Source of the DNA: a virus
Virus record (IMG/VR): IMGVR_UViG_3300045988_173816
Span: 128,001-192,000 of that record
Length of the DNA: 64,000 bases
Reading direction: 5' to 3' (one strand)
The notes under the pieces are model-generated. The model made no database searches and was not told where the DNA came from. It was given only the letters and a program-made list of their open reading frames with translations. The position numbers and the translations under genes were made by a program. Positions 1-63,842 of this stretch are shown here, one piece after another. Numbering within the stretch: the stretch's first letter is position 1; each line of letters starts with the position of its first letter.

Positions 1-1199
1 CTGTTCTATTTGGAGTAAATGATGCTTTTTGGGTTATTCTTTCTTCGACTTATTACACTGCTCGTACTTCAATGACTGCAACATTGCCTAAATTGATTGA
101 GCAACAAGGTTTGAGCATAGAGTCTAAAGTAGTTAAAAATCATATCTACTTATTTTATCTGATGCTCTTACCGTCAGCAGTTGGTAGTTTTATGTTTCTA
201 CCTAAATTACTGCTCATTCTAGGTGTGCCTCCAACAGATTTACCGTTCTACATACCTTATTTTCAATTATCGATTGTTTCGATTTTAATTGCAGCGCCTT
301 GGTCAATATTTATCCCATCGTATCTTAGAACTAGAGGTAGAAGTAAAGAAGCTACGGTTTTAGACCACGCTAATGCTTGGTTTATGTTATTCGGTATTTT
401 CTTCACAACTCATATCTTACATTTGGGTGTAAATACCGCTTTAGTTGTAAATATGATAACTAATGCCATTCCTTTGTATTGGTTCTTGTGGAAGAAGCCT
501 ATACCTCAGTTCTTCTCTAAAGGTTTTGAGTTTTCTTGGAAAGAAATTAAAACCTATTGGAAAATCGTTAAATGGGAACTTGTCAGACGACTTGCTCCAA
601 GGGTATCCGCTATTATTGGGGTAGGTCTTACAATTACAATCAATCCAATTTACGCAGCCATTAAATATTGGATTTCAAACCTAATGATGTTACCTGAAGG
701 TTGGGTAGACTCAATGGCTGGGTTGCTCAATAGTCACGTTTCTCGAAATGCCGGTCTGAATGAATCAATTCCATATAAAGATAATAAATTTGTCTTTTGG
801 AAAGCTTCTATTGGAGCAATTCTTTCGATAGGTCTTATTTACCTAATTGCTTATTTTGGGTTATCTTGGCTACCAGAGTCGATTTATCAAGGTATTATAT
901 CTCCAATTATTTGGTTATTATTACCTATTGAGATTATAACTAAACTCCGTTACTACATGTGGCTTTCTATTAGTCGTTCATACCGACATGATTTAAATGG
1001 GGTTGCTCAACTTATTTATGCAATTCCAACTGCAATATTAACTCCTACTTTGTTATGGTTGTTCCTACATCACTTACAATTTAGTTTTGAGTCTATTTTC
1101 GCCGTTGGAGCTATTATCGGAACAGTTCAGTGGTTAGGTACAGAGATTTATTTTAGAGCTAAGTTATCGAAAGGAGATTTATGCACTCAGCAGATTTAA
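1..1199 (+). CDS. Polytopic membrane protein, MOP/MATE-flippase-like, 5' end outside window
   Basis: The frame is open from nt 3 to the listed ATG at 72, so the gene is cut by the window edge. About 10 hydrophobic helices in a two-halves layout. Family assigned by eye only. Confidence 0.5.
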   Translation, partial: VLFGVNDAFWVILSSTYYTARTSMTATLPKLIEQQGLSIESKVVKNHIYLFYLMLLPSAVGSFMFLPKLLLILGVPPTDLPFYIPYFQLSIVSILIAAPWSIFIPSYLRTRGRSKEATVLDHANAWFMLFGIFFTTHILHLGVNTALVVNMITNAIPLYWFLWKKPIPQFFSKGFEFSWKEIKTYWKIVKWELVRRLAPRVSAIIGVGLTITINPIYAAIKYWISNLMMLPEGWVDSMAGLLNSHVSRNAGLNESIPYKDNKFVFWKASIGAILSIGLIYLIAYFGLSWLPESIYQGIISPIIWLLLPIEIITKLRYYMWLSISRSYRHDLNGVAQLIYAIPTAILTPTLLWLFLHHLQFSFESIFAVGAIIGTVQWLGTEIYFRAKLSKGDLCTQQI

Positions 1200-2167
1200 C
1201 TTGCGCATCTTTCTTTGCAGGAGTAGGTGGTATTGATTTAGGGTTTAAAGAGCAAGGTTTTCGTACAATTTATGCAAATGAATTTGATGCGAAAGCAAGA
1301 GAAACCTTTTCTTTGAATTTTCCTCATGTTCAGTTGGATGGTAGAGATATTCGAGAAGTGTCTGCTTCTGAGGTTCCTACTGTAGATGTTATTGTTGGTG
1401 GCTTTCCTTGTCAAGCTTTCTCTATTGAGGGGTATCGGCAAGGTTTCCGTGATGAAAAAGGTCGAGGAACTTTGTTCTTTGAGTTAGCTCGTATTATAGA
1501 AGAAAAGCAACCGCAAGCTATTTTCTTGGAAAATGTAAAGAATTTAGTGAACCATGATAAAGGAAATACTTTTAAAGTAATTTTAAAGACTTTAGAAGAC
1601 TTAGGTTATTATGTGACTTATAAAGTGATGAACGCTGCTGAGTTTGGCAATATTCCACAAGGTCGCGAGCGTATTTACATTGTAGGGTTTAAAGATAAGG
1701 CGGTATCCGAATCTTTTCAATTTCCTGAGAAAATCCCTTTATCTAAGACTGTCTTTGATGTTATTGATTTCAAAACTCAAGTAGATGAGCAGTATTACTA
1801 CAGAGAAGATAAGCATTATTATCCTTTGTTGAGAGATAATATTGTATCTGTAGGTGGTATTTATGAGTACCGCAGAGGACTTACAATTAGAGAGAACAAA
1901 AGCGGTGTAGTTCCTACCTTGTTAGCTTCTATGGGTACAGGTGGTAATAATGTACCCTTGATTTTGACAGAGAGTGGTGAAATTCGGAAACTGACACCAA
2001 GAGAGTGTTTCAATACTCAAGGTTTTCCTGGTTCTTATCAATTTCCAGAGAAAATGGCTAATAGTCACTTATACAAACAAGCAGGAAATAGCGTAGCAGT
2101 TCCAGTGGTATCAAGAATTGCGAAGCAGATTAAATTGGATTTAGAAAGTGAGCAAGTAGATGAGTAA
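1181..2167 (+). CDS. DNA (cytosine-5)-methyltransferase
   Basis: All C5-MTase motifs in order: FFAGVGG (I), GFPCQAFS (IV, catalytic Cys), ENVKNL (VI), QGRERIYIVG (VIII), TPRECFNTQGFP (IX), GNSVAVPV (X). Overlaps the upstream gene by 19 nt. Confidence 0.93.
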   Translation: MHSADLTCASFFAGVGGIDLGFKEQGFRTIYANEFDAKARETFSLNFPHVQLDGRDIREVSASEVPTVDVIVGGFPCQAFSIEGYRQGFRDEKGRGTLFFELARIIEEKQPQAIFLENVKNLVNHDKGNTFKVILKTLEDLGYYVTYKVMNAAEFGNIPQGRERIYIVGFKDKAVSESFQFPEKIPLSKTVFDVIDFKTQVDEQYYYREDKHYYPLLRDNIVSVGGIYEYRRGLTIRENKSGVVPTLLASMGTGGNNVPLILTESGEIRKLTPRECFNTQGFPGSYQFPEKMANSHLYKQAGNSVAVPVVSRIAKQIKLDLESEQVDE

Positions 2168-2567
2168 AAATAAAAGAAAACAACTTCAACAAGCTTTAGA
2201 GAAGACTTTTGATAAAGTTATTGGTTTAGCAGATAGTGTAAATGGTGAAACTATTGAGGTTTCTGCTAAATATTTGGTTTATGTAGAACTTGCAAAAGAC
2301 TTAATTTATTTATCTTTAGAAAACAAAAAGTCAGGTAAAAGAGTTCATGACTTGCATATTTCAGTATCAAAAGACTTGGATGTTTTCTTCGCAGGTAGTG
2401 TTTATAGACCAGAAAGTTCTTTACCTGCAAGTTCAAGGGAGCACATAGTTCCATATTCTGCTAAAGATACTCGATTTTTCACATACGGTTTTGAACTTTT
2501 GGTAGAGTCTATTACAACAGACTTCCAAGTAGCTTGTTTCTTGAGTGCTTTGGAAGAGTTTATCTAA
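2160..2567 (+). CDS. Hypothetical protein (distant member of paralogue family A)
   Basis: ORF overlapping the MTase stop by 8 nt. Its VSAKYLVYVELAKD..HDLHISV pattern resembles the ORFs at 3093, 3561 and 4042. Confidence 0.6.
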   Translation: MSKNKRKQLQQALEKTFDKVIGLADSVNGETIEVSAKYLVYVELAKDLIYLSLENKKSGKRVHDLHISVSKDLDVFFAGSVYRPESSLPASSREHIVPYSAKDTRFFTYGFELLVESITTDFQVACFLSALEEFI

Positions 2568-2584
2568 TTACGGAGGGTTTTGGT

Positions 2585-3092: not shown

Positions 3093-3557
3093 ATGGTAAA
3101 ACTAGCAAACAAACAGACAATTGAGTTATGGAACCACTTAAGACAAGGTTTTGAAGAGACTTTGAATTTTGATGAGAACCGTTTACCAGTAAAGTCAGTT
3201 AATCAAGTTTCTTCTAGGTATAAGTGTTCTGTTTTATTGAGTGGTTATGTTTTTCAAATAAGACTATTGAAAAACACACTTGAAACTAATTTAGATACGG
3301 ATTTAGTTCACGAAATTGAGCTTTATTACGATAGAGAGTTAGGTAGAATTTCCTTTAAGAGTGTTACGTGTAACCAAAAGACAGGTAAACGGAACGTGGT
3401 ATCTGCGCAAGCTTACTTACCTAGTTTAGTTGAATATACTATCTTTAAACAGATTTTAACTGATTTAGTTGAAAATATAGCAACAATTAAGCAAGTTGAT
3501 TACTTAAACTTAGGTGTTCAGTTATCAGGTTTTGGTTTTGATGTGATAGAGGGTTAA
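3093..3557 (+). CDS. Hypothetical protein, paralogue family A
   Basis: ORF with a GAGG RBS. Shares VSSRYKCSVLLSG..LVHEIELYYDRE with the next gene. Confidence 0.7.
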   Translation: MVKLANKQTIELWNHLRQGFEETLNFDENRLPVKSVNQVSSRYKCSVLLSGYVFQIRLLKNTLETNLDTDLVHEIELYYDRELGRISFKSVTCNQKTGKRNVVSAQAYLPSLVEYTIFKQILTDLVENIATIKQVDYLNLGVQLSGFGFDVIEG

Positions 3558-3560
3558 GGT

Positions 3561-4491: not shown

Positions 4492-4990
4492 TGAGGAGAT
4501 GCCTTAAAGCCTTTTTGCTACAACGTAGGATGAAAATTCAAGCGTGAAGGTAGCGAAAGCAGAAAGAAGAAACAGGATGTTGATACAACTTAGTAGTTGA
4601 TACAAAAGTGAACGGTTATAAAGCTGAAATAAAAGCTAATCAGTGTCTAGTAAATAAAATAGTGACTGCTAGAAAACGTTAGTGCTAAGTCAATACAAAC
4701 AAGGGTAAGTTTCGGTAGGAATGTCCTAAGTTTCAAAAAAAATGAGATATGGTTAACCTCTAACGACTATCTTCTGATGGGGGAGTAAAGCCACAAGCTA
4801 AAGGTGGAAGAAAAATCTTTGGTCTAACTACTCATAAAAGTTGTGTTAGAGTAGTTCAGATTGACATATAGTCTGCGCACAGTTTGTAATGGAAGTGTCT
4901 AGGAATTGACCTAGCTGTTAGGGGTTGCGCCTTAATGGAAACTATCAAAAGTACGAAAAGCACATTGAAAACTGAATAACACGATAAAAA
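4492..4990 (+). ncRNA. Candidate structured RNA upstream of RHH-tnpB (group-I-intron-like?)
   Basis: No ORF >20 codons. 8-bp hairpin 4826-4833/4849-4856, nested hairpin 4875-4930, 10-nt direct repeat GTTGATACAA at 4579 and 4596. GACTA (4765) and TAGTC (4869) loosely resemble group I R/S core elements. Confidence 0.3.
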
Positions 4991-4994
4991 TTTG

Positions 4995-5023
4995 TTGCAT
5001 TAAATTCAATAATATGATACAAT
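4995..5023 (+). promoter_or_regulatory. Sigma-A-type promoter for RHH-tnpB
   Basis: TTGCAT, 17-nt spacer, TACAAT. Confidence 0.55.
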
Positions 5024-5055
5024 AGGTTTATCAAATGTTTAAGGAGAAAATCGAT

Positions 5056-5232
5056 ATGACAGGAAGACCTAAATCTAAAAAGGGAGTTAAGGTACATACT
5101 GCTTTCAAAATTTATCCAAAGGATAAAGAAAGAGCACAAGTTATGGCAGATAAACTTGATATGAGTCTGTCAGCGTACATTAATAAAGCTGTTTTGGAGA
5201 AGTTAGACTATGATGAGAAGTCAGAAGCTTAG
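5056..5232 (+). CDS. Ribbon-helix-helix (CopG/Arc-like) DNA-binding protein
   Basis: AAGGAG RBS 9 nt before the ATG at 5056; the listed start at 5035 has no RBS. Basic N-terminus, beta strand VHTAFKIY, then two helices (KERAQVMADKLDMSLSAYINKAVLEKL). Confidence 0.65.
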   Translation: MTGRPKSKKGVKVHTAFKIYPKDKERAQVMADKLDMSLSAYINKAVLEKLDYDEKSEA

Positions 5233-6451
5233 ACTAAAACTAACCATGGAGCAAGAAAGTCTTGCATGGTGGTATAGTAAGGTCTCACGCAACTATTGGA
5301 ACCTCTTAGTTGATATTGATAAACGTAATAATAAAGGTGAATTTGATGAAATTTTGAGTAGAAATGGGAATAAAACTTATTACTCAAAATTCTATGATAG
5401 AGATATTTATAGTCTCAGTCAATCCGATTATCTCAACCTTGCTAAGATTGTTGTCGCTAAAAACTATGATGAAGATGATGAAGCATGGTCTTGGTATTAT
5501 CAACCGAATCAATCGTTTATCTATGCTTTTCTTGTTAAAGAATTAGTAAAAATTAAGATACAAAATAAAGGTAGATTAAAATTTAGAAGTATCGATAAGA
5601 TTCGACCAAGCTTCAATGTTCGTTGTGATATTTCAGCTGATAAGAAACGCTCTAGTCGTATTTATCTAAAAGATAACGGTAAACTTCAAATTCCGACTCT
5701 CGGAGATGTTAATTTCGGTTCCACTAGAAAAGATTTCGATTTATCAGGTAAGAAACAAGTTGCTAATATTTCCTTTGATGGGAAGTATTGGTACTTGTCA
5801 TACATGGTAGAGATTGAAGTTCAAGTTACTGATTTACCAGATTATACAGATGGTGTTGGAGTGGATTTAGGTATTAAAACTCTTGCGACTGTTTCTGATG
5901 GTACTATTGTGCCTAATATCAAGACATTCAGACGAGTTCGTATCTTAAACAAGCGCTTGAAACGATTACAACGTAAAGTTTCTCGTAAATACCTTATCAA
6001 TAAATGCAACAAACACAATAAAACAAAGAACATTATTAAGCTAGAAAGAGAAATTAAATTGATACACCGTTCACTAAGGAACATTCGTATCAATCATATT
6101 CGTAAATTTGTCTCAGAGTTGGTTAAGAAACAACCACAATATATTGCAATCGAGGACTTGAACGTAAAAGGAATGATGAAGAACAAACGTCTTGCAAAAG
6201 ATATTGCGAATTGTTCCTTTTATACTATCAGAGAACACCTTATTAGAAAGGCGAAAGAGCGCCAAATAGCGGTTAGGTTGGTAGATAGGTTTTATCCTTC
6301 TAGTAAGACTTGTTCAAAGTGTGGTAGTTACAAACAGGATTTAAAACTCAGTCAAAGAGTGTATCCTTGTAATAACTGCCAAGAGAAGATAGATAGAGAT
6401 TTCAACGCTTCGATAAATATTGCAAGAACAGACAGATATATCCTAGCTTAA
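5210..6451 (+). CDS. tnpB: TnpB-family RNA-guided endonuclease (IS200/IS605 accessory protein)
   Basis: Complete RuvC triad: VDLGIKT (D), IAIEDLNVKGM (E), DRDFNASINI (D). Zinc finger CSKCG..CNNC. Typical N-terminus KLRLKLTMEQ. Confidence 0.9.
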   Translation: MMRSQKLRLKLTMEQESLAWWYSKVSRNYWNLLVDIDKRNNKGEFDEILSRNGNKTYYSKFYDRDIYSLSQSDYLNLAKIVVAKNYDEDDEAWSWYYQPNQSFIYAFLVKELVKIKIQNKGRLKFRSIDKIRPSFNVRCDISADKKRSSRIYLKDNGKLQIPTLGDVNFGSTRKDFDLSGKKQVANISFDGKYWYLSYMVEIEVQVTDLPDYTDGVGVDLGIKTLATVSDGTIVPNIKTFRRVRILNKRLKRLQRKVSRKYLINKCNKHNKTKNIIKLEREIKLIHRSLRNIRINHIRKFVSELVKKQPQYIAIEDLNVKGMMKNKRLAKDIANCSFYTIREHLIRKAKERQIAVRLVDRFYPSSKTCSKCGSYKQDLKLSQRVYPCNNCQEKIDRDFNASINIARTDRYILA

Positions 6452-6684
6452 TTGATTTGTTTTATTGCCTTTGGAAACTAGAGGTAACTAGTTTCAGTGG
6501 TAGGTCAGCCGTAAAGCCGAACCACTATAATACACACGCCCTGAAAATTATGAGTATAGCAAACAAAGAGTAGCTTTGGCAAAATTTGGCTCAATATGGG
6601 AATGTCAACTGTGTTATTCAATTTTTGATTTTTAGCACTTTTGACTGACGGTTAACTTATCGAACTTCACAAAGCGAAAACGCT
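6452..6684 (+). ncRNA. Putative omega-RNA / right-end region of the TnpB element
   Basis: ORF-free tail with perfect hairpins 6474-6495 (8 bp) and 6670-6687 (7 bp), plus stem 6496-6501/6531-6536. TnpB guide RNAs are normally encoded at the 3' end of tnpB. Confidence 0.35.
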
Positions 6685-6945
6685 TTGTATATAGACTTAG
6701 TTACGTTAGATAACCAAGCCCTTCAACCGTTTACTATTCAAGTGTATGTGAAGGATAATATTCCTTGGGTGCATTTGTACTATTTTGATAAGAATAAGGT
6801 AAATAAAACAGTGGATGAACCTCTAACTGAGGTTCAAACTACTTTGGCAGATTTAATTAGTGGTATACCAAGTCAAAGTCGTGTGGTAGCTTTTAGAGAC
6901 GCATTATATCTCAATTTAAGAAGTTTTGTTTATTGGGAAGATTAG
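6685..6945 (+). pseudogene. 5'-truncated family A paralogue
   Basis: Only a TTG start, and it lies inside hairpin 6670-6687. Lacks the ~50 N-terminal residues seen in paralogues. The frame is open back to 6649 only. Directly abuts the TnpB element. Confidence 0.35.
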
Positions 6946-11716: not shown

Positions 11717-11916
11717 ACGTTTCAGAATTGATAGCTTATTTATCACAATTTCCACCAACTAGTTCTGTGGAAGTAAAGATTTCAGGGTTTGATGACTCTG
11801 AGGATGGTCGTCTAAATTTATTTGGAATGGTACATGGTGCTATAAAAACAGAGATTGGGCATCCTCAGTTGATTGCAGAGTTTGATACCTCTGAGCCTTA
11901 TGACTGGAGTAATTAA
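11713..11916 (+). CDS. Hypothetical protein
   Basis: ATGA start/stop overlap with the upstream gene. Confidence 0.55.
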   Translation: MNVSELIAYLSQFPPTSSVEVKISGFDDSEDGRLNLFGMVHGAIKTEIGHPQLIAEFDTSEPYDWSN

Positions 11917-13225: not shown

Positions 13226-13576
13226 ATGATTATTTTAGGTTTATTTTGGATTTATTGGTTTGCTGTCTTGTTTACTCTAATGAGAAGTCCAGAATTACAA
13301 CATTATTTAAGACTTAGTGATATTCAAGCAACTAAATCTTTAACTTTCAGTTTAGTTTTTGTAGGTTTGTCTTGCTTAAGTTTGTTAGTGGTTACTAGTA
13401 TAGGCTTAACTTATTACTTAGAGTTTATAGCTCTTAGTTTAACTGTAATAGGTTCTCTAATTTCTCTATTGGTTTTACAAACAGGAGGTTGTAAATGGCA
13501 CAAAAGAAAAAGAAATACTACGCAGTCAGAAACACTAATCAAATCTTCGAAGATTGGTCTGATTGTGAGAAAGTAG
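13226..13576 (+). CDS. Small membrane protein
   Basis: ATG at 13226 has a GAGG RBS (alternative ATG at 13214). 3 TM helices. The 3' end overlaps the RNase H start. Confidence 0.5.
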   Translation: MIILGLFWIYWFAVLFTLMRSPELQHYLRLSDIQATKSLTFSLVFVGLSCLSLLVVTSIGLTYYLEFIALSLTVIGSLISLLVLQTGGCKWHKRKRNTTQSETLIKSSKIGLIVRK

Positions 13577-14223
13577 TAAAAGGGGTTAAGGGTGTTGAGT
13601 TCAAAAGTTTTCCTACAAGAGAACAAGCTGAAGCTTATTTGAGAGGTGAGGAACCAGTATTGTCCACAAAGAAAACCTCCGAAGTTGTTCCTTATGTCTC
13701 AGATTGTGGGATAAAAGGTACAATTCGTATGGCAGAAGACTCTGACCCACTCCTTTGGGGTATCGAGGGTTTCGTTTATTCGATTGACGGCTCTTTCAAT
13801 ACACAAACTCAAACTTACGGTGGTGCTTTTGCTTGCTATGAAAATAGTGTATTGTTAGATGCTCAAGCAGTTGCAAATAATAAACCAAATTTCGCTGCTT
13901 CAAGAAATGTAGCAGGAGAGGTTTGTGGTTTTGGTTTGGCGATTGAAGATGCGATTAAGCGCCAACTTAGTAAAGTAACTATTGTTTGTGACTATGAGGG
14001 TATCTTTCGTTGGTCTGCACCTAAGTCTGTAAAGGTTAATGAACAAGCTTGTTGGGGAACATCATTGAAGAAATCAGTTGGGAAGTACCATGCTTATATC
14101 TTGCAAAGAGCCAAAGAACATGGAATTGAAGAGGTTGATTTCATTTGGGTTAGGGGACATAGGGGTTTAAAAATCAATCAAACAGTTGATAAGTTGGTGA
14201 AGAAAGTTGTCGGATTGAAGTAA
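13495..14223 (+). CDS. Ribonuclease H (type 1) with N-terminal hybrid-binding domain
   Basis: AGGAGG RBS. N-terminal KYYAVRN..W..C...V.G..G..FKSFPTREQAEAYL is the RNase H1 / caulimovirus-type HBD. C-terminal DGS..AGE..CDYEG..H..N..VD acidic residues fit the RNase H fold. Confidence 0.8.
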   Translation: MAQKKKKYYAVRNTNQIFEDWSDCEKVVKGVKGVEFKSFPTREQAEAYLRGEEPVLSTKKTSEVVPYVSDCGIKGTIRMAEDSDPLLWGIEGFVYSIDGSFNTQTQTYGGAFACYENSVLLDAQAVANNKPNFAASRNVAGEVCGFGLAIEDAIKRQLSKVTIVCDYEGIFRWSAPKSVKVNEQACWGTSLKKSVGKYHAYILQRAKEHGIEEVDFIWVRGHRGLKINQTVDKLVKKVVGLK

Positions 14224-34771: not shown

Positions 34772-34779
34772 CAGTTAAA

Positions 34780-34808
34780 GGTATCCAGCTTCGGTTGGAT
34801 ACTTTTTG
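34780..34808 (+). terminator. Intrinsic terminator
   Basis: GTATCCA-gcttcggt-TGGATAC followed by TTTTT. The 5' arm contains the GGTATC motif. Confidence 0.75.
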
Positions 34809-35994: not shown

Positions 35995-36008
35995 GTTGAG
36001 GTAAAGAT

Positions 36009-36545: not shown

Positions 36546-36570
36546 GTATTGAGACAGAAAGAGGTAAAGC

Positions 36571-37128: not shown

Positions 37129-37139
37129 GGGATAAATAA

Positions 37140-38265: not shown

Positions 38266-39219
38266 ATGAAAAAGATTAAATTACTCTCGGTATCCGCTTT
38301 ATCTATCCTAGCTCTTGGGTTTGGAACACAAGTAGCACACGCAAGTATTCAAACTGACACGATTGATGAGAAATGGGGCAAACCCACTTTGGTTTATGGT
38401 GGTAGCTTGACTGACTCTCAGGTTGAGGAAGTAAACAAGTCCTTTAATATTTCTGATGTTGCAAACGTTAAGCGCCAAGTTGTTTCTGATGCTGACTACG
38501 TTAAGTATATGAATGAACCAAACGCTAATGGTTTATCTTTGATTTCATCTACCTTGGTTGCCAAACAAGATAAAGGTAAAGGTATTACAGTCAAGATTGT
38601 AACCCCAGATAATATTACGCGTGTAACTGAGACACAATATCGCAACGCTGCGATTACGGCAGGTGCAACAGATTTGGCGATTGAAGTTTCTGCTCCAGTA
38701 AAAGTAACTGGTGAATCAGCTTTGGTTGGTGTTTCTAAAGCGTTGGAAGCGAATGGTCAAGAAATTGATGCCAAACGAACTGAGCTTGCAAATGAGGAGA
38801 TTTCAACAACCGCTCAAATTGCAGAAGCAAATAAAGATACCAAAGGTTTTGACAGTCAATTGTTAGATAATGCTTTAATTCAGATTAAGACTGAGTTAGC
38901 TAAAGAAAAACAAAACAAGGGTCAAGTTGCTGATGATAATAAAGTAGAGAAGATTGTTAAGAAAGCTCTTAAAGACAATAAACTTGATGATATTATCTCA
39001 GAGGATCAAGTGTCTCAGTTGGTTCAATTTGCCAAAGGGTATCAGTCTACATCTGCGGTTGACTCTAAAGAAGTATTGAATCAACTAGGTGATTTGAAAG
39101 ATGCTATTTCTGAGGGGGTAGGTAAGTTCTTGAAGTCTGCTGAAGAGCATGGTGTGTTTGAGAAAGCGGTTGATTGGGTTAAATCTTTGTGGGAATCTTT
39201 AGTTAGTGCTTTCCACTAA
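38266..39219 (+). CDS. Secreted protein, DUF1002-like
   Basis: Signal peptide MKKIKLLSVSALSILALGFGTQVAHA|S. WGKPTLVYGGSLTDSQVEEV.. resembles the extracellular YpuA/DUF1002 family. Confidence 0.6.
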   Translation: MKKIKLLSVSALSILALGFGTQVAHASIQTDTIDEKWGKPTLVYGGSLTDSQVEEVNKSFNISDVANVKRQVVSDADYVKYMNEPNANGLSLISSTLVAKQDKGKGITVKIVTPDNITRVTETQYRNAAITAGATDLAIEVSAPVKVTGESALVGVSKALEANGQEIDAKRTELANEEISTTAQIAEANKDTKGFDSQLLDNALIQIKTELAKEKQNKGQVADDNKVEKIVKKALKDNKLDDIISEDQVSQLVQFAKGYQSTSAVDSKEVLNQLGDLKDAISEGVGKFLKSAEEHGVFEKAVDWVKSLWESLVSAFH

Positions 39220-40751: not shown

Positions 40752-40868
40752 AAAATTTAGAAACAACTTGGTTTCTTATTTTTGTTAAGATTAAGTTTGT
40801 TTAGATGGTTTAGTAAAGTAAGATTTAAGTCTTACATATTTCAGTACAGAAAGGGAAGATATAAGTAC

Positions 40869-43800
40869 ATGAATAGAAGTGCAGAAACAAAAAGTTTTGG
40901 TTCAATTCGTAAGTACAAACAAGCCGGTACTTGTGGTGTTATTTTAGGTTTGGCAGCTTTAAGTTTAGCTTTCACAGGAGGTACTGTAAGTGCGGATGAA
41001 AGAGTAAATCCAAATCCAGCTACTAATGCACAGAGCTTACAAGAATCTCCAACTGTAGAATCTACAAAAGACCAAGGTAGTACAGGGAAATCAACAGGTT
41101 CTGTTGAAGTTACTGTGGGTCGAGATAAAGTTGAGTCCGCGGTATCTGCTGCTAAAGAAGCAGGTTTAACTGTTAAGGAAAAAGAAGTTGATGGTGGTTT
41201 AGTAGCTAACCCAGATGAGTTAGCTAAGAAAACAGCTGAGATTGAGTCTAGTTATGATAAACAAGCAAGCACTGTTGTAGATGAGTCTAAGAAGTATAAA
41301 GAGGAAGTAGCTAATCGTAAAGAAGAGATTAAAACGATTACTACTGAGAACAAGGAAAAACAAGACTCTTATGACAAAGCAAAAGCTCAGTATGATAAAG
41401 ACTTATCAGATGCTACTACAAAAAATGCTCAAATTGATAAGGAAAACCGAGAGAAGAATGAGCGTTTAAAAGCTGAAAAAGAGCGTGTAGCTAAAGAAAA
41501 TGAGCGTATCAAACAAGAAAATGCTTTAGCTAAAACTATGTATGAAAAAGCTTTAGCAGATAAAGCTAAGAAAGACGCTGATATTGATAAAGAAAATGCT
41601 GCTGCTAAGAAAAAATATGAGTCTGAATTAAATACGTGGACTATTGAAAAAGGTAAGTATGATGCAGATTTAACTAAGTATAACGAAGAGTTAGAAAAGT
41701 ATAAGAAAGCATTAGCTGAGGCAAAACGTAGGAACGAAGAGATTGCTAAGAAGAATCTTTCAGATAAGGAAGCTTATGCAAAAGCAGTAGAAGCTCGTAA
41801 GAAAGAAAACGAAGCTATTCTAAAAGCGAATAAAGAAGCTTTAGATGCTTATGAAAAAGCTTTAGCTGAGTTAAAACGTAAAAACGAGCAGGTTGATAAA
41901 GATAATGGTATCGCTACTTCGGAATATAACGATGCTATGCGTGATTATCAGAAAAGGTTTGCTCAGTATAAAGAAGACTTAGCTGAGTACAATCGTAAGT
42001 TAGCTGAGTATAATAAGCAAAATCTGAAGGCTCAAGGTGGTGGAGTTAAAATAGTAGGTGAGTTCGATGAGTCTAAACGAGGTTCATTGGATTATTACTC
42101 TAAATTAACCGCAGTTTTTGATGAAGATAAAACTCTTGAAGTTGTAAGTGGTGCTTTAGGTGCTAATGCTAATACTACTATGACTTTAGATACCAACCTA
42201 ACGAGAGATACTTCCTTTAGCAGTAGTGAAGACCCTAGCAAGTGGGGTGGTATGAATATCCGAGATATTCAACAAGGTTCAAAATTTACACTTCATAATG
42301 TAGGTAGAACTGCGACAGGTAAAATTATTTCTGCTACATTTACTTCACGTTCAACTCCAGTACCAGAACATAGAGTTAACGGAAATAAAGATGTGTACAC
42401 TAGCATGTGGGTTTGGTGGAATAAAGTAAGTGGGGGTAGTGTATCTGAGGTTGGTTTCTATCCTCGAAACTACTTGAATGTAGAGTGGGATATTTCGTTC
42501 TTCGATGAAACTACTAAAAAACCTTTAAACTTAGGTGTCATAAACATTTACTCAGATTTAGATTATGCTCAAGCGATTAGATATACTTATGGAGATAATA
42601 ACACGGGAGCTATTGTTAATCCATTAGGGTCTAAAGTTAAGGAAGTTACAACTCGTGGTTTAACTTATTGGGCAGGTGTTAAAACTGATGGAGTTCATGA
42701 TTCTGATGATTCAAGTCCTTTAAATCGGTGGAAGGCAGGGGATCCTTGGTATACTAACGTTGGCGATGTATCTGCAACACCAGAAGGCTCTCTTATTAGT
42801 GTAGGTAAAGGTACTACTCACCACTTAACTTATTTAGCTCGATATAATTGGAACTTAGTTCCTTATACAGAAGCTCAGTCTTTAGCTTATAAGAAGTATG
42901 TACAAGATAATGATAGAGCGGAAGGTAAAGCAATATCTACAGATAAAGACATTTTTGAAACGGGATATGCTTTTCAACTATGGGGAGGTAAATCCGTAAT
43001 TGATAAGATAGTACCTCCTATTGAGCCCGAACAACCAAATCCACCTAAGTTAACTCAAAAAGATAAAGAAACTCTTGAGAAACCAACACCTAAACCGTTG
43101 CTTCCTGATGTACCACCTACACCTGCAGATGGAGATGTTCCTCTTCCAAAAGAGCCACCTAAACCGGGTGAGTTTCTAAAGAAAAAACCAAATGAACCTA
43201 ATTATAAGGAAAAGGATAAAACTCCGATTGCACCTCCAGTTGCGAAACCCTTGGTACTTCCTCCTAAAGATGTACCAGATACACCTCATGTTCCTACCCC
43301 AAATGAACCTCCTAAACCAGAGTTAAGAACTGTTCCAAATGAAGTAACACCAAGAGAGGTTGAGGTTACTTATACACGTTTGAGAACTACCCCTACGGTT
43401 GAGAAGTTAGTTAAAAACTCAGGAGGTATAAATGTAAATAACTCATCTGTACCTAAACTTTCTGAGGTGGTTTGGGAGCTTGAAACTAAACCTCTCGCGG
43501 CAAATCGTAAAGAAACTACGATTTATGAATTAACCGATAATTTACCACAAGGGTATCATCTTGACTTAGCGAAAACTATTGCTCAAAACTCAGATTTTAC
43601 AGTGACTTATAATAAGGCTAAACATCAATTAAAAGGTGTATTGAAGTCTGAGGGGTTAGCTAAAGTTAACGCAGATTTAACTAAAGCATATACTGTTTCA
43701 GTTCTTAAGATTTATGGTACTGTAACAAATGATGCAGCTACTTATAAGAATAACTTCCGTTTGAATTTGAATAATGAGTTTGAGTCTTATTCAAATGTTG

Positions 43801-46073
43801 TTAAAGTAACTACACCAGGTGACCCACATCGTCCAGGCGATAGTGAGATTAAACCAGTTAAAGTGAACTATAACAAAGATGGTGTCAAAATCAACGATAA
43901 GCAAGTATTACCAGGTTCTATAAATTACTACCATGTACTTTTAGATTATGACCAATACATAGGTATTAAGAGTGGTAAAGATGCAATTCAAAAAGGATTT
44001 GGAGCTATTGAGGTTTACCCTAGTGAAGCCGTAGATTTAATGCCTAGTGAAATTCGTTATGTAGACTCTAACGGAAAAGAAGTGAAAGGTATTAGTGCTT
44101 ACCATTTCAATTCGGTATCTGAGGTTAAAGATGCTCGTATTCTTTCAATTTTGAATACAAGTAACATTAAACCTAAAGGTGCGTTCCAAGTCTTTATGGC
44201 AGATGATCCACAGTCTTACTTTGACAACTATGTTTCTAAGGGTATTTCAGTTACTGTAATTGACCCTATGAAGGTAAAAGAGTCTTTAGGTAAAACTGGA
44301 GGTTCTTATGAAAATAAAGCTTATCAAGTAGATTTTGGTAATGGTTATGAAGCTGATGTTGTGAAAAATAAGGTTCCATCACCTAAACCAACAAAACAGA
44401 ACTTGAATGAACAAGGTGAAGACATTAACAATAAACCAGTTCTTGCAGGTACTGTGAACTACTATACTGTAAAAGCTGACTATAGAGATTATAAAGGTAT
44501 TGAAGCAGATAAAGAAACTATTAAGCGTGGTTTCTATATTGTCGATGATTATCCAGAAGATAAAGTTACAATCAATGAGAAAGATGTTGTAGTGACTGAT
44601 TCTAAAGGGAATAAAGTCACAGGTTTAACTGCTCATATCTACAATTCGGTATCTGATGCTCCTAAAGGAGTTCAAGATGCTTTAGCAAAACAAGGGTTTA
44701 AACCTAAAGGGGTAATCCAAGTCTTTAGCGCAACTAACCCAGAAGAATATTACGCTAAGTATGTTCAAACAGGTGATGTTGTAACTATTAAAAACCCAAT
44801 GACTTTGAAGAAAGAGTTCTTAGGTAAGGTTGGAGAATATGAAAATACAGCTTATCAGTTAGACTTTGGTCTTGCTAAAGTGACTGAAACTGTTAAAAAC
44901 AATTTTGTTAAACCAACTCCTAAGAAAGCCAACTTCAATAAAGATGGTGTAAACATTGATGGTAAAGAAGTCTTAGCAGGTTCTATCAATTACTACCATG
45001 TAACTGCTGACTACTCATCTTATAAGGGTATCAAAGCTGATAAATCTCGTATTGCACAAGGTTTCTTTATTGCTGATGACTATCCAGAAGATGTGTTAGA
45101 GGTACTTTCTGAGGGTATTAAACTTGTTGACTCTAAAGGTCAAGAAGTTAAAGGTTTAAAATACGCTATTTACGAAAGTGTGGAGAAAGCACCAGAGGTG
45201 GTTCGTAACGCTTTAATTACTCGTGGTTTTAATCCTAAAGGAGCATTCCAAGTTTGGGAAGCTGAAAACCAAGAAGAGTATTATGCAAAATATGTTCAAA
45301 CTGGAGATAAGGTTATGATTATTAACCCTATGAAGGTTAAAGAACAGTTTGCTAAGACAGGTGGTAAGTATGAAAACACTGCGTATCAAATTGATTTTGG
45401 TGTAGCTGATGTGACTGTAACTGTTGTGAATAATATTCCTAAGTTAGAGACTAAGAAAGATGTTATTATCAAGATTGGTGATACAGATTCACAAGATGGT
45501 AAGACTTTAGTATTAGGACAAACTTTCTATTATTCATTTGCAGGGTCTCTTATTCCAGGTAATCGTGCAGATGACTTGTTTGAGTACAAATTTGTCGATG
45601 ATTACCAAGAAACTCATGATCGATTTGATGGTGTTTATAAAGTAATTGCAAAACGTGACTTTGTAACTATTGACGGTAAACACTTCAAAGCAGGTGATGA
45701 CTTAACTGCTTACTCTTGGTTGAAAGAGGATAAAGCTAAAGGTCAACTTGAAGTTGGTTTGAAAGAAGATTTCTTACGTTCTATTACGAAAGAATCTGAG
45801 TTCCAAGCTGATGTATTTGTTGAGATGACTCGTATTCAAGCAGGTGAAGTTGAAAATACTGAGTCTCATGTTGTTAATGGTGTAACAGTATCCTCAAATA
45901 CTGTTAAAACTCGCACAGAGTTACCACCAACTCCTACTACACCTACACCACAACAACCAGTATTACCAAATACAGGAGCAGAAACTACTTCTGCAGTGGC
46001 AGTGGCAGGGTATGGTTTGTTAGCTTTAGCATCACTATCGCTTTCTACAAGAAAACGTAAAGAAGAAGATTAG
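40869..46073 (+). CDS. Antigen I/II-family LPXTG-anchored adhesin (PrgB/SspB-like)
   Basis: ATG at 40869. YSIRK-type signal (FGSIRKYKQAGTCGV), Ala/Lys-rich heptad A-repeats, V-like domain, Pro-rich P region. Three C-terminal repeats (VL(P/A)GS(I/V)NYY..DY..YKGI..GF...DDYPE), then LPNTG, a hydrophobic segment and RKRKEED. Confidence 0.85.
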   Translation: MNRSAETKSFGSIRKYKQAGTCGVILGLAALSLAFTGGTVSADERVNPNPATNAQSLQESPTVESTKDQGSTGKSTGSVEVTVGRDKVESAVSAAKEAGLTVKEKEVDGGLVANPDELAKKTAEIESSYDKQASTVVDESKKYKEEVANRKEEIKTITTENKEKQDSYDKAKAQYDKDLSDATTKNAQIDKENREKNERLKAEKERVAKENERIKQENALAKTMYEKALADKAKKDADIDKENAAAKKKYESELNTWTIEKGKYDADLTKYNEELEKYKKALAEAKRRNEEIAKKNLSDKEAYAKAVEARKKENEAILKANKEALDAYEKALAELKRKNEQVDKDNGIATSEYNDAMRDYQKRFAQYKEDLAEYNRKLAEYNKQNLKAQGGGVKIVGEFDESKRGSLDYYSKLTAVFDEDKTLEVVSGALGANANTTMTLDTNLTRDTSFSSSEDPSKWGGMNIRDIQQGSKFTLHNVGRTATGKIISATFTSRSTPVPEHRVNGNKDVYTSMWVWWNKVSGGSVSEVGFYPRNYLNVEWDISFFDETTKKPLNLGVINIYSDLDYAQAIRYTYGDNNTGAIVNPLGSKVKEVTTRGLTYWAGVKTDGVHDSDDSSPLNRWKAGDPWYTNVGDVSATPEGSLISVGKGTTHHLTYLARYNWNLVPYTEAQSLAYKKYVQDNDRAEGKAISTDKDIFETGYAFQLWGGKSVIDKIVPPIEPEQPNPPKLTQKDKETLEKPTPKPLLPDVPPTPADGDVPLPKEPPKPGEFLKKKPNEPNYKEKDKTPIAPPVAKPLVLPPKDVPDTPHVPTPNEPPKPELRTVPNEVTPREVEVTYTRLRTTPTVEKLVKNSGGINVNNSSVPKLSEVVWELETKPLAANRKETTIYELTDNLPQGYHLDLAKTIAQNSDFTVTYNKAKHQLKGVLKSEGLAKVNADLTKAYTVSVLKIYGTVTNDAATYKNNFRLNLNNEFESYSNVVKVTTPGDPHRPGDSEIKPVKVNYNKDGVKINDKQVLPGSINYYHVLLDYDQYIGIKSGKDAIQKGFGAIEVYPSEAVDLMPSEIRYVDSNGKEVKGISAYHFNSVSEVKDARILSILNTSNIKPKGAFQVFMADDPQSYFDNYVSKGISVTVIDPMKVKESLGKTGGSYENKAYQVDFGNGYEADVVKNKVPSPKPTKQNLNEQGEDINNKPVLAGTVNYYTVKADYRDYKGIEADKETIKRGFYIVDDYPEDKVTINEKDVVVTDSKGNKVTGLTAHIYNSVSDAPKGVQDALAKQGFKPKGVIQVFSATNPEEYYAKYVQTGDVVTIKNPMTLKKEFLGKVGEYENTAYQLDFGLAKVTETVKNNFVKPTPKKANFNKDGVNIDGKEVLAGSINYYHVTADYSSYKGIKADKSRIAQGFFIADDYPEDVLEVLSEGIKLVDSKGQEVKGLKYAIYESVEKAPEVVRNALITRGFNPKGAFQVWEAENQEEYYAKYVQTGDKVMIINPMKVKEQFAKTGGKYENTAYQIDFGVADVTVTVVNNIPKLETKKDVIIKIGDTDSQDGKTLVLGQTFYYSFAGSLIPGNRADDLFEYKFVDDYQETHDRFDGVYKVIAKRDFVTIDGKHFKAGDDLTAYSWLKEDKAKGQLEVGLKEDFLRSITKESEFQADVFVEMTRIQAGEVENTESHVVNGVTVSSNTVKTRTELPPTPTTPTPQQPVLPNTGAETTSAVAVAGYGLLALASLSLSTRKRKEED

Positions 46074-53952: not shown

Positions 53953-55516
53953 AAAACCAGTTCGAGAAATTGAAAGTAAATTAACCGATGGTGGAGCTAA
54001 ATTATTAACTGAGTTTGAAAGTTTAGCTGACGTTGGTGTTGAAAGTCCTAAGCAAGTCGTTTGTATTCACTTTAAAGAGAAAGACCGCTATGGTTTTTAT
54101 ATGCAGAGTGGTAAGAAATTGAAGTCTTTTAGTGTACCTACTGCTTTTATTGATAAGAGTCGAGTCTTGTCGGAACAAGTTTTGAACCATATTAAAGAGA
54201 GTGGTCTCTACTTTGAAGAGGGTGAGAATAGTACAATTAAGGTACCAGTCCTAGCTCGTACAACAAGTACAGTCTTAAAGAATTTCCAAGGTTCCCAATA
54301 TCCAGTGGTATCCTCTTATGTTCGTTATTTTTCAGAGACATTTAGTGAAGAACAGAGAAAACTCTTGTCTCGTTGGTTCTTGCAAGAGAGTTTCTACGAG
54401 GAGGGACTTCAGAGGATTGAACTGGAGTTAAATACTGATACAGACTACTTTAGAGAGAAAGCTGCTAAACTCGCAACTCTCATGGGTGGTGGAACTTGGT
54501 TTTTTAAAGAGTTGAATTACTTTGAAACGGGCGCTAAGTGTACCCTTGGTCACGACATTAAATGGGAATTTGTGGCGGAGGAAGAAGCCACGGGAGAAGT
54601 GTTGAAATTCGGAGTGGATTGTGTACAGGATTTCTTCAATATTGAAGGTCAAGTACAGAACCAGTTGGTACGATTCCGTACTCGCTATTTCAATGAAATG
54701 TTGACCTATGCTTATTCTTATAGTCAGCAGTTAGGGTATCAGAAAAACTTTGGTCTGGCTTTACCTAGTTTTTGGCAAAGTTTAGTTGATGGTGGTTTTG
54801 CAAAACCGACTTCAAAAATTGAGTATTTGTTGAAGTTTGTAAGTGAGTTTAACCGCTTGAACATGCCTTTACCAGTTTCTCTTCGTTTACAGTTCTTAAA
54901 AGAGTTAGAGCAACAGAGAGCACACAATTTAAGATATAGGTTTATGGAAGATACCTTCGGTGCGGTATCCTTGTATAATATGTATTCTCTTTTAGGTGAT
55001 TTAGTTCCATTTATTAGTGAGAATGATAAAGATAAAGGTGCTTGGTCGTCTATTAAAGGTTCTATGGTGAGCGAACATGGTTTGTTACTTCCAGAGAAAG
55101 AGTTAGTTCTTAACTTTTTAGAGCATGGTTTCTTTGCTAGGGTTGATAATTTGTATGCAACTTTAGAGACCTATGGTGACTTAGTTCGTGGTGTACTGGC
55201 TAATTCTACTAGTGAGTTAGATTTTCAACGAACTTATAACAAACTATCTTGGTTTTCGAGTATTCAAAACCGAAGAAGTGGTGAAGAAGTTCCTCACTTA
55301 ATTGGAGGTATTGTACAACATAAATATAGCTCTCCTAGTGTCTTTGGTTTAGGTTCTGCTGGACTTATTGAGAAAGGTGGTAAGCTCGAAGTAGATTTTA
55401 GCAATATTGATAGGTTCTATGAAGGTGTTCTTAATTTGACGGTTAGTTTAGAAGACCTTATGTCTGTATATAACTTATTTGTTAAGAAATTAGAAGAACA
55501 ACGTGCTAAAAGTTAA
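53942..55516 (+). CDS. Hypothetical protein (524 aa)
   Basis: Overlaps the upstream gene by 11 nt. Confidence 0.7.
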   Translation: MVHRKPVREIESKLTDGGAKLLTEFESLADVGVESPKQVVCIHFKEKDRYGFYMQSGKKLKSFSVPTAFIDKSRVLSEQVLNHIKESGLYFEEGENSTIKVPVLARTTSTVLKNFQGSQYPVVSSYVRYFSETFSEEQRKLLSRWFLQESFYEEGLQRIELELNTDTDYFREKAAKLATLMGGGTWFFKELNYFETGAKCTLGHDIKWEFVAEEEATGEVLKFGVDCVQDFFNIEGQVQNQLVRFRTRYFNEMLTYAYSYSQQLGYQKNFGLALPSFWQSLVDGGFAKPTSKIEYLLKFVSEFNRLNMPLPVSLRLQFLKELEQQRAHNLRYRFMEDTFGAVSLYNMYSLLGDLVPFISENDKDKGAWSSIKGSMVSEHGLLLPEKELVLNFLEHGFFARVDNLYATLETYGDLVRGVLANSTSELDFQRTYNKLSWFSSIQNRRSGEEVPHLIGGIVQHKYSSPSVFGLGSAGLIEKGGKLEVDFSNIDRFYEGVLNLTVSLEDLMSVYNLFVKKLEEQRAKS

Positions 55517-62805: not shown

Positions 62806-63802
62806 TTTTGGACAACATCGAGGTAATGATGAGGGTTGGAACAAAGTTCCTGATTGGGGTTCGCCACAACAACCTCAACATCCTCATTCGCCACAAAGAG
62901 TTAACTTCGGTTCTTCTGATTTTGGTTCTGAGTCAACAAGTTCATTGGAGGAAGAACAAGGGTTTAATCCTCCTGGTGGATTGGAGTCTCAAGCTCAACG
63001 AGGGGGTGGTTTTGGCTATGAGCAACCTCAACAACCTTACCCACATGAGTTTCAACAACAAGGCTTTAACCAAGGACAAAATGAGGGTTGGGGTTCACAA
63101 GGTTCTCAAGGGTTTGAACCTAACGGGTATAATCAAAACCCTCAAGGATATCCACAAAACCAGTTCGACTCCAACCACTATGATCAATATGGTCAGATGG
63201 ATAATAGCGCAAGCTCGCACCCAGTTAAGAAGAAATGGTCTCCTTGGTCTGTTATTTTAACGGTTGTTATCGTTGGAGTTTTGATTTTTGGAGTTATGGT
63301 TTTTATTGCAAGTAGAGCAAAACAAAATCCTTCAAGTGAGTTGAAGAGTAAAGTTACTCAAGTTGAGAAAGGTACTACGGATAAGAAATCTACGGTATCC
63401 GACAGCGACCGTATTTTCCCGGAAGGTTCTCAGAAGAAAGAGGAAAAGAAAGAAGAGAAAACTTCTAGTTCAACTTCTGTAGAAGAGAAACCAAACGAGA
63501 AAGTAGAGAACTCAGCTAGCAGTGACTTTAAATCAGCTAATATAATCGTACAAAACCTTGATGGTGCGAAGATTTCCTCTGAGGTTTTAGTTGCAAAAGG
63601 TGTAGTTAAGACTAAAAATTTAGTTGCTGATAATGGTTTAACTGCTTACTATATGCTTGATTTATCTGTAGGTTCAACTTCTTTGAAGGTTTTGGTAAAT
63701 TATGACTTAGCAAGTCAATTAAAAATGGGAGACACAGTAACAGTTCGCTACCATAAATTGATTGATGTAGATAAGGTCATTATTGAGTCTGTCACGAAAT
63801 AA
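62792..63802 (+). CDS. Bitopic membrane protein with Q/N/G-rich low-complexity N-terminal domain
   Basis: GGAGG RBS. ~140 aa rich in Gln/Asn/Gly/Pro (GFNQGQNEGWGSQGSQGFEPNGYNQNPQGYPQNQ), TM helix WSVILTVVIVGVLIFGVMVFIA, Lys/Glu/Ser linker, then a ~90-aa beta-rich C-terminal domain. Confidence 0.7.
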   Translation: MSQRNFGQHRGNDEGWNKVPDWGSPQQPQHPHSPQRVNFGSSDFGSESTSSLEEEQGFNPPGGLESQAQRGGGFGYEQPQQPYPHEFQQQGFNQGQNEGWGSQGSQGFEPNGYNQNPQGYPQNQFDSNHYDQYGQMDNSASSHPVKKKWSPWSVILTVVIVGVLIFGVMVFIASRAKQNPSSELKSKVTQVEKGTTDKKSTVSDSDRIFPEGSQKKEEKKEEKTSSSTSVEEKPNEKVENSASSDFKSANIIVQNLDGAKISSEVLVAKGVVKTKNLVADNGLTAYYMLDLSVGSTSLKVLVNYDLASQLKMGDTVTVRYHKLIDVDKVIIESVTK

Positions 63803-63804
63803 GA

Positions 63805-63842
63805 AAAAAGTCAGGTGGGTATCTATTTCCTCTTGACTTTTT
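63805..63842 (+). terminator. Intrinsic terminator
   Basis: AGTCAGG..loop with GGTATC..CTCTTGACT followed by TTTT. Confidence 0.6.

Follow-up and report, generated by a model that had tools for sequence, protein, structure and literature searches.

Why should one hexamer be written again and again on a single strand of a giant extrachromosomal element, at nearly even intervals, and hardly ever on the other? The question is raised by a stretch of IMG/VR record IMGVR_UViG_3300045988_173816 (positions 128,001 to 192,000; the whole 64,000-nt stretch is hereafter the window), which corresponds to about 140,343-204,342 of a contig of 284,100 bp recovered from a human oral metagenome (ERR589719). 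An original prediction had noticed the word GGTATC in the window and offered five possible roles for it. The analysis presented here finds that the word is kept on one DNA strand by selection, and that it is a property of a whole family of elements and not of the other DNA sampled. The role that we favour, tentatively, is the third of the five, the priming of DNA synthesis.

Polarity and spacing of GGTATC in the window

An exact count over the whole window gives 98 copies of GGTATC on the + strand and 4 on the - strand; the earlier hand tally had been about 97, and it had placed the four inverted copies exactly where they are found. GGTATC is the top hexamer in the window for strand asymmetry and for over-representation alike, the mononucleotide expectation being 13.5. 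The features concerned are as follows.

602..63823, + strand: GGTATC array, 98 copies, all + (exact count); extended form W-D-S-GGTATC-Y (W, A or T; D, not C; S, G or C; Y, C or T); median gap 548 bp
GGTATC starts, + strand: 602, 1431, 1702, 2107, 3398, 3665, 4162, 7019, 7276, 7612, 7993, 8750, 8838, 9815, 10841, 11444, 12492, 13218, 13759, 13999, 14603, 15170, 15968, 16843, 16936, 17511, 18365, 19742, 20419, 20909, 21895, 22337, 23032, 23469, 23854, 24519, 25056, 25408, 25991, 26317, 27056, 27771, 28801, 29157, 29844, 30226, 30615, 31123, 31462, 31859, 32328, 32761, 33120, 33983, 34780, 35290, 35700, 35836, 36592, 37345, 38289, 39038, 39393, 40012, 40359, 41141, 41907, 43552, 44114, 44648, 45027, 46768, 47173, 47648, 47870, 48460, 48959, 50533, 51542, 52020, 52500, 52675, 53176, 53602, 54307, 54735, 54964, 55779, 56930, 57747, 58020, 59094, 59508, 60198, 60746, 62053, 63394, 63818
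11884..11889, - strand: inverted copy (GATACC on +), exact count
38836..38841, - strand: inverted copy, exact count
42189..42194, - strand: inverted copy within the adhesin gene, exact count
54950..54955, - strand: inverted copy, exact count
34777..34807, + strand: terminator-like hairpin whose 5' arm holds the motif at 34780 (from sequence and fold)
4493..6652, + strand: RHH-TnpB insertion sequence (IS) of IS200/605 type, recognized by its TnpB domains; no motif; segment common to 12 loci with other flanks

The neighbouring bases are biased much as had been tallied: the 5' neighbour is G in 47 copies, C in 34, T in 14 and A in 3, and the 3' neighbour is C in 37, T in 26, A in 19 and G in 16. 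Outside the core, only position -1 (G or C in 83%) and position +1 (C or T in 64%) are informative in the window. A looser motif was considered and rejected, as no one-mismatch variant of GGTATC is enriched there.

The frame spread, the non-coding sites and synonymous shuffling together rule out a codon or peptide artefact, as the original prediction had maintained. On a mechanical gene set (81 + strand open reading frames, ORFs; 90% coding), the word turns up in every frame, with 33, 19 and 40 copies in frames 0, 1 and 2 and 6 further copies in non-coding DNA. The 92 copies within genes compare with 21.2 +/- 4.1 (maximum 34) in 1000 synonymous-codon shuffles, which keep every protein and each gene's codon usage, and with 11.4 +/- 3.3 after codon permutation. 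The claimed strand bias stands as an excess on the + strand; the deficit on the - strand, taken by itself, is not significant in the window (4 copies versus 6.9 by codon-aware expectation).

Spacing in the window is under-dispersed, again as claimed: the coefficient of variation (CV) of the gaps is 0.617 versus 0.98 +/- 0.10 for random placement, and none of 20,000 random placements was as even. The gaps have a mean of 652 bp and a gamma shape of 3.2, and only 4 of the 97 are shorter than 200 bp where about 25.5 are expected. No relation was found in the window between GGTATC spacing and gene boundaries; 28 genes carry no copy, and long genes hold several, evenly spread. The largest gap (2857 bp, 4162 to 7019) had been attributed to the RHH-TnpB insertion, and the IS homology shared with other loci, at 4493-6652, bears this out; with the IS taken away, about 700 bp are left. 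The IS200/605 units carry no copies at all, which supports the suggestion that motif density parts resident backbone from recent arrivals. The possibility that the motif is an IS target site was examined at the right flanks (only these) of 12 IS copies, and was rejected as those flanks lack GGTATC.

Sequence inspection also upholds the presence of copies in terminator-like hairpins, at 34780, 39393 and 63818. In the hairpin at 34777-34807 the first G of the motif pairs with T and the 3' arm reads GGATACT, so that no inverted GATACC arises, an arrangement in line with avoidance of the inverse word.

Maintenance and turnover of sites

Conservation in related elements had been named as a check on the signal. 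In a relative 75-94% identical in DNA, 22 of 26 alignable sites are conserved, where background hexamers reach 42% (p = 9e-6). Lost sites (4) and gained sites (5) tend to be neighbours, usually no more than a few hundred bases apart. A site of 6-7 nt would arise by chance only about every 3-5 kb, so selection has written one roughly every 0.5 kb; selection also removes large gaps between sites.

Acquired genes gain sites as well. The adhesin gene of the window (40782..46073, described below) has its closest homologues in S. mitis and S. oralis, at 55-65% identity. One of its 6 sites is common to all chromosomal homologues and one to some of them, while four are private to the element. At position 4245 of the gene the element reads GGGTATC where S. 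mitis and S. oralis read GGGCATT or GGGAATT; all encode Gly-Ile, and the site was made by two synonymous changes.

A family of giant oral elements carries the word

The window belongs to a family represented by about two dozen related IMG/VR contigs (130-278 kb) and by one 241-kb NCBI metagenome record. These are giant elements of roughly 230-285 kb, present in many human oral metagenome assemblies. A 269,044-bp contig is circular, because one gene is split over both of its ends, with overlap; in three other contigs the marker distances close on 232, 240 and 278 kb, which makes them near-complete circles. About half of each circle was sampled, as loci (L001-L192).

Every one of the 92 family loci (10-23 kb each) has 1.0-2.4 copies per kb on the gene strand, with at most 6 inverted. 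Taken together, 758 kb of unique family sequence contain 1305 + and 51 - copies (25:1), and the logo reads W, not-C, S, GGTATC, Y. The pooled gaps have a median of 508 bp and a CV of 0.63; 50 are shorter than 200 bp (310 expected) and 26 longer than 1500 bp (90 expected). In 903 family genes, 1132 forward copies compare with a synonymous-shuffle expectation of 253.8 +/- 14.2, a 4.5-fold excess. The inverted word is 1.8-fold depleted in the pooled genes (47 versus 85.7 +/- 8.0; none of 150 shuffles fell below 65). Three inverted copies bunch within 1.35 kb of a single + strand gene of 613 aa (L119:14070-15412; the same gene occurs in L116 and L120), and L129, a relative whose marker protein is 78% identical, has no inverted copy anywhere in its locus.

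The word is not enriched in host-like DNA. Nine chromosomal loci of S. mitis, S. oralis and Streptococcus sp. (188 kb) contain 56 + and 27 - copies, or 0.30 and 0.14 per kb, and other large oral elements that share related TnpB or ribonucleotide reductase (RNR) genes contain 0.13 per kb on + and 0.08 per kb on -. No private word was found in these sister elements. Shuffles matching the count, exponential gaps and equal enrichment in the host, the sequence-testable outcomes that the original prediction had listed against itself, were thus not observed. Among the very large oral elements met through TnpB or RNR similarity, L055 and L057 (G+C 24%, GC skew 0.36) and L109 and L110 (G+C 30%, contigs up to 315 kb) likewise lack the GGTATC signal. 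GGTACT in L035 (43:3) was considered as an analogous word and rejected: it belongs to a coding repeat (L035:14000-20800) with 9-bp and 87-bp spacing, which mimics a strand-specific motif in simple k-mer scans.

A divergent lineage, L156 (IMGVR_UViG_3300008589_000004, 161 kb), has proteins only 35-57% identical to those of the main family and almost no DNA similarity. It nevertheless carries the same word, as dense and as regular as elsewhere in the family (40:5 in 20.6 kb; CV 0.53). This divergence is too deep for position-by-position inheritance, and the sites must therefore be maintained. Position -1 in L156 is G in 35 of 40 copies and position +1 is A or T in 33 of 40, where the main family has S and Y; the change of flanks may reflect a shift in the specificity of the reader.

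The signal follows the DNA strand, on a replicon of apparently one polarity

Nearly all family genes lie on one strand, and in the window all substantial ORFs are on +, as had been stated. The strand of the word can be separated from the direction of transcription at one gene, with fragments of it in two other loci.

L095:15652-16869, - strand: full-length C5 methylase gene, 405 aa (Pfam E = 1e-86)

Three TCGGTATCC sites fall within this gene, all on the + DNA strand, and its own sense strand has none. The sites are 396 and 345 bp apart and in register with the series on both sides, where the codon-aware inverted rate would give 0.16 sites (p = 6e-4). The motif is kept antisense to the gene's own mRNA; it is hence the strand of the DNA, not the direction in which genes are transcribed, that the signal follows. 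Two of the roles offered at the outset, a non-template-strand transcription signal and an RNA-level signal, are disfavoured by this gene. The same methylase gene is broken up elsewhere (L101:15484-16146, L094:19474-20679).

GC skew is above zero in every 2-kb segment of the window and in every 3-kb segment of all family loci. The six markers used (two TnpB types, the RNR gene, a gene for a 244-aa protein, the zinc-finger gene discussed below and two further genes) keep one orientation on every contig, along 195-237 kb of contigs that measure 198-278 kb; they span up to 237 kb of a 278-kb contig and about half the sequence of two near-complete circles. Within the sampled half of the circles, no 3-kb segment shows more inverted than forward copies or a GC skew below zero, and a second replichore of flipped polarity, sought with the six markers on about 20 contigs, was not found there. 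These observations suggest a giant replicon that is copied or transferred in one direction, possibly with a short second arm. All IS200/605 TnpB copies are co-oriented with the G-rich + strand, and this IS family reportedly inserts into the lagging-strand template (Ton-Hoang et al., 2010). GC skew and IS orientation together point to + as the lagging-strand template, or exposed single strand.

A stand-alone primase-type zinc finger as candidate reader

The family encodes a replication set that includes a DnaB-like helicase, a family A polymerase with 5'-3' exonuclease and a pol III delta'-like clamp-loader subunit. A zinc-ribbon scan turned up a further gene, a 207-aa ORF.

L026:7872-8492, and 10001-10627 in L135-L160: DnaG-type CHC2 zinc-binding-domain protein, about 208 aa, no Toprim domain

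The ORF bears the motif CPFHEDLKPS...FNCFGCG. Its zinc-binding domain matches DnaG structures in PDB (2AU3, E = 1e-5; 1D0Q, E = 1e-3), and an AlphaFold model of the protein (pLDDT 82) has 1D0Q as its top fold match with probability 1.00; in the same comparison the C-terminal helices match nothing. Among 5.8 billion proteins, PF01807 is annotated for 19 of 19 homologue clusters. The first 18 are 188-214 aa long, and the most distant (324 aa) is the sole one with a Toprim domain.

All family contigs that were hit carry the gene, and so does the distant lineage. Downstream of the DnaB-like helicase it stands in a dense cluster of genes, whose starts and stops adjoin or overlap, in the order DnaB_C helicase, proteins of 475, 221 and 95 aa, zinc-finger protein, RuvC-like 310-aa protein. 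The DnaB-like protein has, by eye, a DnaB-type N-terminus and no zinc finger. The 310-aa gene was considered as the catalytic primase and rejected, as it has a RuvC-like D-E-D-D pattern. The 475-, 458- and 897-aa neighbours have no PDB sequence match, and no catalytic primase domain was found among the neighbours of the zinc finger. The zinc-binding domain is what gives DnaG and T7 primases their template specificity, and it can act in trans on the catalytic domain of another subunit. From its sequence and gene position, the 208-aa protein is a candidate for the element-specific reader of the motif.

A model for the function of the word and its rivals

The data presented above have led us to propose, tentatively, that (G/C)GGTATC marks priming sites on an exposed single strand, read by the zinc-finger protein encoded near the DnaB-like helicase. 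In this model the word would be a DNA-level, strand-specific "coverage" signal of the replicon, serving as recognition and start site for primer synthesis. The exposed strand would be the lagging-strand template of a one-direction replicon and possibly also the strand transferred in conjugation. The 3' C would be an uncopied ("cryptic") base, as in the T7 site 5'-GTC-3' and the DnaG site 5'-CTG-3'; the T before it would template the initiating ATP, and the primer would begin pppA-U-A-C-C-(G/C). The reader would be the CHC2 zinc-binding protein of about 208 aa, which lacks a catalytic domain, and the catalytic primase domain would be supplied by host DnaG or by an element protein that has escaped recognition. 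Programmed priming is favoured because coverage on the length scale of Okazaki fragments, which the pooled median gap of 508 bp fits, together with an element-encoded specificity factor, accommodates most of the facts. The model also draws on the replication and primer-processing genes of the element itself, RNase H1 among them. A bolder form, which we consider rather doubtful, is that the replicon writes its own priming programme as several hundred evenly spaced 7-nt words per circle, and that the orphan zinc finger retargets a primase, possibly the host's, so that discontinuous synthesis would begin at encoded positions and only on "bar-coded" DNA.

Several points weigh against priming. The zinc-finger protein could have another role, and its co-occurrence with the motif may reflect common descent only. 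To our knowledge, the recognition sites of primases are 3 nt long (5 nt for a functional T7 site), not 6-7, and none is visibly enriched genome-wide. Pure priming does not predict the 1.8-fold depletion of the inverted word, and an avoidance of same-strand pairing has to be invoked. The direction of replication is deduced from GC skew and IS orientation. Neither a Toprim nor an archaeo-eukaryotic primase (AEP) domain is among the Pfam matches listed for about 140 proteins of the window and the family loci, drawn from roughly half of the element, with two of the family-level scans listing the top 25 families.

Two rivals also treat the word as a signal read along DNA, and we regard each as unlikely. 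It could guide a double-stranded DNA translocase by the logic of FtsK-orienting polar sequences (KOPS) and SpoIIIE recognition sequences (SRS), an FtsK/SpoIIIE-family ATPase or SNF2/ResIII helicase loading one way and pumping the 230-285-kb circle during transfer or segregation. Near-absolute polarity and depletion of the inverted word are the hallmark of KOPS/SRS (PMC3384302). The signal tracks the DNA strand and not transcription, and an 833-aa FtsK/SpoIIIE-family protein, which matches the FtsK motor and a TcpA-type coupling protein in PDB, adjoins the VirB4-like ATPase. The match, however, covers the motor domain only, with no FtsK gamma domain found by sequence (Pfam, PDB); the density is 10-25 times that of KOPS/SRS, and orienting a motor needs no 0.5-kb regularity. 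No point where polarity converges was seen in the sampled half of the circles, and in Firmicute type IV systems the FtsK-like coupling proteins probably transport single strands, for which polarity requires no guide. The other of the two holds that the word acts like Chi, attenuating a helicase-nuclease (host RexAB/AddAB or an element enzyme) that enters at broken forks and travels back along the replicon; the element would thereby be protected and recombinational repair set in motion. In Firmicutes, Chi sites have 5-7 nt, and the family has a UvrD-like helicase and a DHH-family protein. Like Chi, the word is short, asymmetric, over-represented, co-oriented with replication and on the G-rich (leading) strand (PMC3384302). 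Its lack of enrichment in the streptococcal loci (56:27 in 188 kb) means that it is not the host's Chi, and among the element genes scanned there is no AddAB- or RecBCD-type nuclease-helicase. We know of no Chi that is evenly spaced or this dense, or whose inverse is selected against.

Three further rivals were weighed. The word, asymmetric and sharply defined, could be the target of a strand-specific nicking or base-modifying enzyme that leaves regular nicks or marks on one strand, for which T5-type nicked genomes and single-strand phosphorothioation offer parallels. A 547-aa ParB_N-HNH protein in the replication module and the C5 and N6/N4 methylases of the family are candidate enzymes; yet no enzyme specificity can be assigned from sequence, the idea gives no reason for selection to multiply and evenly space the sites, and roughly 400 nicks per circle (1.5-1.7 per kb, 232-284 kb) are hard to square with a plasmid-like replicon, so that we hold it to be quite improbable. 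Some restriction enzymes (Type III or Type ISP) cut only where two sites face in opposite orientations, so that DNA with all its sites pointing one way would be uncleavable, as with the EcoP15I sites of T7. Escape from such an enzyme would account for the 25:1 orientation ratio and the significant depletion of the inverted word, and the strong avoidance of other palindromic words such as GATATC (2+2 versus 21+21 expected) points to restriction pressure. Such escape predicts neutral or fewer forward words, not a 4.5-fold excess, even spacing, conserved sites and new sites in acquired genes; very little weight can be given to it, and as sole explanation it is close to refuted by the enrichment. 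A signal at RNA level, or one coupled to transcription (pairing with 16S rRNA, a site for an RNase or for RNA binding, an ops-like signal for a NusG-family factor), draws on the presence of the word on the non-template strand and in almost every mRNA. It is hardly credible given one clear minus-strand gene with three sites on the + DNA strand and none in its own mRNA, positions unrelated to gene starts or ends, and sites that fall between genes or within terminator hairpins. Some explanation outside those listed retains about a fifth of the probability.

The bolder form, if correct, would be the first genome-wide, sequence-programmed initiation of Okazaki fragments (or of the transferred strand) and a new form of replicon self-recognition. 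If the word programmes priming, Okazaki-fragment starts can be hard-wired in the sequence, and primase specificity can come from a free zinc-finger subunit. Should the word instead be a motor guide or a mark of self, it would be a new self-recognition code for a mobile element. Either way it provides a simple sequence marker with which to find such elements and to date acquired DNA in them, and the 7-mer and the 208-aa protein are testable reagents.

Other genes of the window and its relatives

Most window proteins have no Pfam or PHROG family, and two TnpB genes are among the recognizable ones. No tRNA was found in the window. A megablast comparison with phage and plasmid collections gave no match to it, and the species representatives in GTDB yielded no relative of a core protein. 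Further features are listed below.

1181-2167, window: C5 DNA methylase gene
18614-19438, window: N6/N4 DNA methylase gene
13495..14223, + strand: RNase H1 gene with N-terminal hybrid-binding domain (Pfam PF01693, PF00075)
28900-31917, window: RNR small-subunit gene, interrupted by an intein
40782..46073, + strand: AgI/II-type LPXTG adhesin gene (Pfam), 6 motif copies

The RNase H1 could possibly serve primer removal in the replication machinery of the element, a role that may tie it to the motif. An intein or Hint domain also splits a C5 methylase gene in a relative (L082:6391-8613). Tandem paralogous small genes of unassigned function lie at 34874-37721 (five, about 176-193 aa) and 3093-4034 (two, about 155 aa).

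At least three C5 methylases and one N6/N4 methylase are encoded in the family. The palindrome GATATC is nearly absent from the window (2 per strand versus about 21 expected), and GGGATC, GGAATC and GGTACC are likewise rare there. Beside several orphan methylases, the scarcity of these words looks like restriction-site avoidance.

The framing of the window as phage-like, with virion DNA, calls for a caveat, as relatives instead carry VirB4-like and FtsK-like conjugation genes. None of ten large proteins scanned matched a phage structural family, and there was none among the best 25 of 99 matched families. Encoded in the relatives are CHAP hydrolases, a VirB4-like ATPase and a coupling-type ATPase of the FtsK/SpoIIIE family; the replication set further includes a UvrD-like helicase, SNF2/ResIII, a DHH-family protein, ParB_N-HNH and an actin-like protein. 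The ParB_N-HNH protein (546-547 aa; L026:14248-15888, L160:14064-15704) joins a ParB N-terminal domain to a McrA-like HNH nuclease domain and is encoded in the replication module.

Comparison with known systems

In niche and make-up the family resembles the recently described Inocles, giant plasmid-like elements of oral Streptococcus, which are 245-368 kb long, have a G+C content of 32% or 24%, switch ORF orientation at origin and terminus, and carry the marker InoC (about 454 aa, PF13814); the paper that describes them reports no DNA motif (PMC12340149). Family members likewise come from the human mouth, show affinities with streptococci, form circles of hundreds of kb, have mostly genes of unknown function, harbour many IS, encode VirB4 and coupling proteins, and are absent from isolate genomes. 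They differ in G+C (34-38%), in size (232-284 kb) and in showing no orientation switch in the sampled parts. InoC/PF13814 is not among the families listed for the sampled loci, and a 454-aa ORF of the window (14327-15691), examined as a possible InoC, was rejected as a divergent TnpB-like protein that is not PF13814. With G+C different and InoC not found, the family is called Inocle-like and not Inocle. That ORF and its counterpart at L115:13053-14417 (454-455 aa) give only weak TnpB-type hits, to OrfB_IS605 and a zinc ribbon (E about 1e-3); such ORFs hold the same place in relatives and may be TnpB that has been domesticated or has decayed. The G+C values of L055/L057 and of L109/L110 match those of Inocle-delta and of Inocle-alpha/beta/gamma, respectively (PMC12340149).

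The comparison closest to the proposed function is with primase sites. T7 gp4 recognizes 5'-GTC-3', extended to 5'-(G/T)(G/T)GTC-3', and DnaG recognizes 5'-CTG-3' or 5'-CTA-3'. Such sites are read on a single strand by a zinc-binding domain and are repeated along the lagging-strand template; they end in an uncopied base 3' of the T that templates ATP, a grammar that ...TATC-3' fits, and the element encodes both a DnaB-like helicase and a zinc-binding domain of DnaG type. The sites known so far have 3-5 nt, are frequent by chance, and are not reported as enriched, evenly spaced or conserved genome-wide, whereas the word here has 6-7 nt and occurs at 4.5 times its codon-aware expectation, and the zinc finger stands alone as a protein of its own, with no catalytic domain attached.

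KOPS/SRS, which belong with the "architecture imparting sequences", are over-represented and lie on one strand at about 90% or more, with the inverse counter-selected, at about 1 per 16 kb near dif or more rarely (PMC3384302). The family word resembles them in this degree of polarity, in selection against its inverse and in being a DNA-level signal of replicon polarity. They are, however, host-encoded 7-8-mers whose orientation changes at the origin and at dif, and their reader is the FtsK gamma domain; the family word occurs at 1.0-2.4 per kb, is evenly spaced, does not flip over the sampled half, has no gamma domain found to read it and is not enriched in host-like chromosomal loci. With Chi it shares the form of a short, asymmetric, over-represented leading-strand word co-oriented with replication, of 5-7 nt in Firmicutes. 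Chi is the host's own word, enriched in the core genome, with a skew usually of about 65-85% as opposed to 96% here, and without even spacing. Uptake sequences (the uptake signal sequence, USS, of Haemophilus and the DNA uptake sequence, DUS, of Neisseria) also occur about once per kb, in all frames and in terminators, but stand in both orientations on a host chromosome and serve natural transformation; here the ratio is 25:1 on an extrachromosomal element. The EcoP15I sites of T7, asymmetric hexamers that all point the same way, are neither enriched nor spaced in T7, in contrast to the 4.5-fold enrichment and the conservation of individual sites seen here.

Strand-polar, over-represented words are thus a known kind of signal (PMC3384302). 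A full-text literature search on GGTATC found no genome-wide signal this dense and regular. We know of no such word that is equally dense, evenly spaced and private to a mobile element, and there is a substantial chance that a new mechanism is at work. Chi and KOPS are among the few sequence signals known to organize whole replicons, and the word of this family is an order of magnitude denser than they are.

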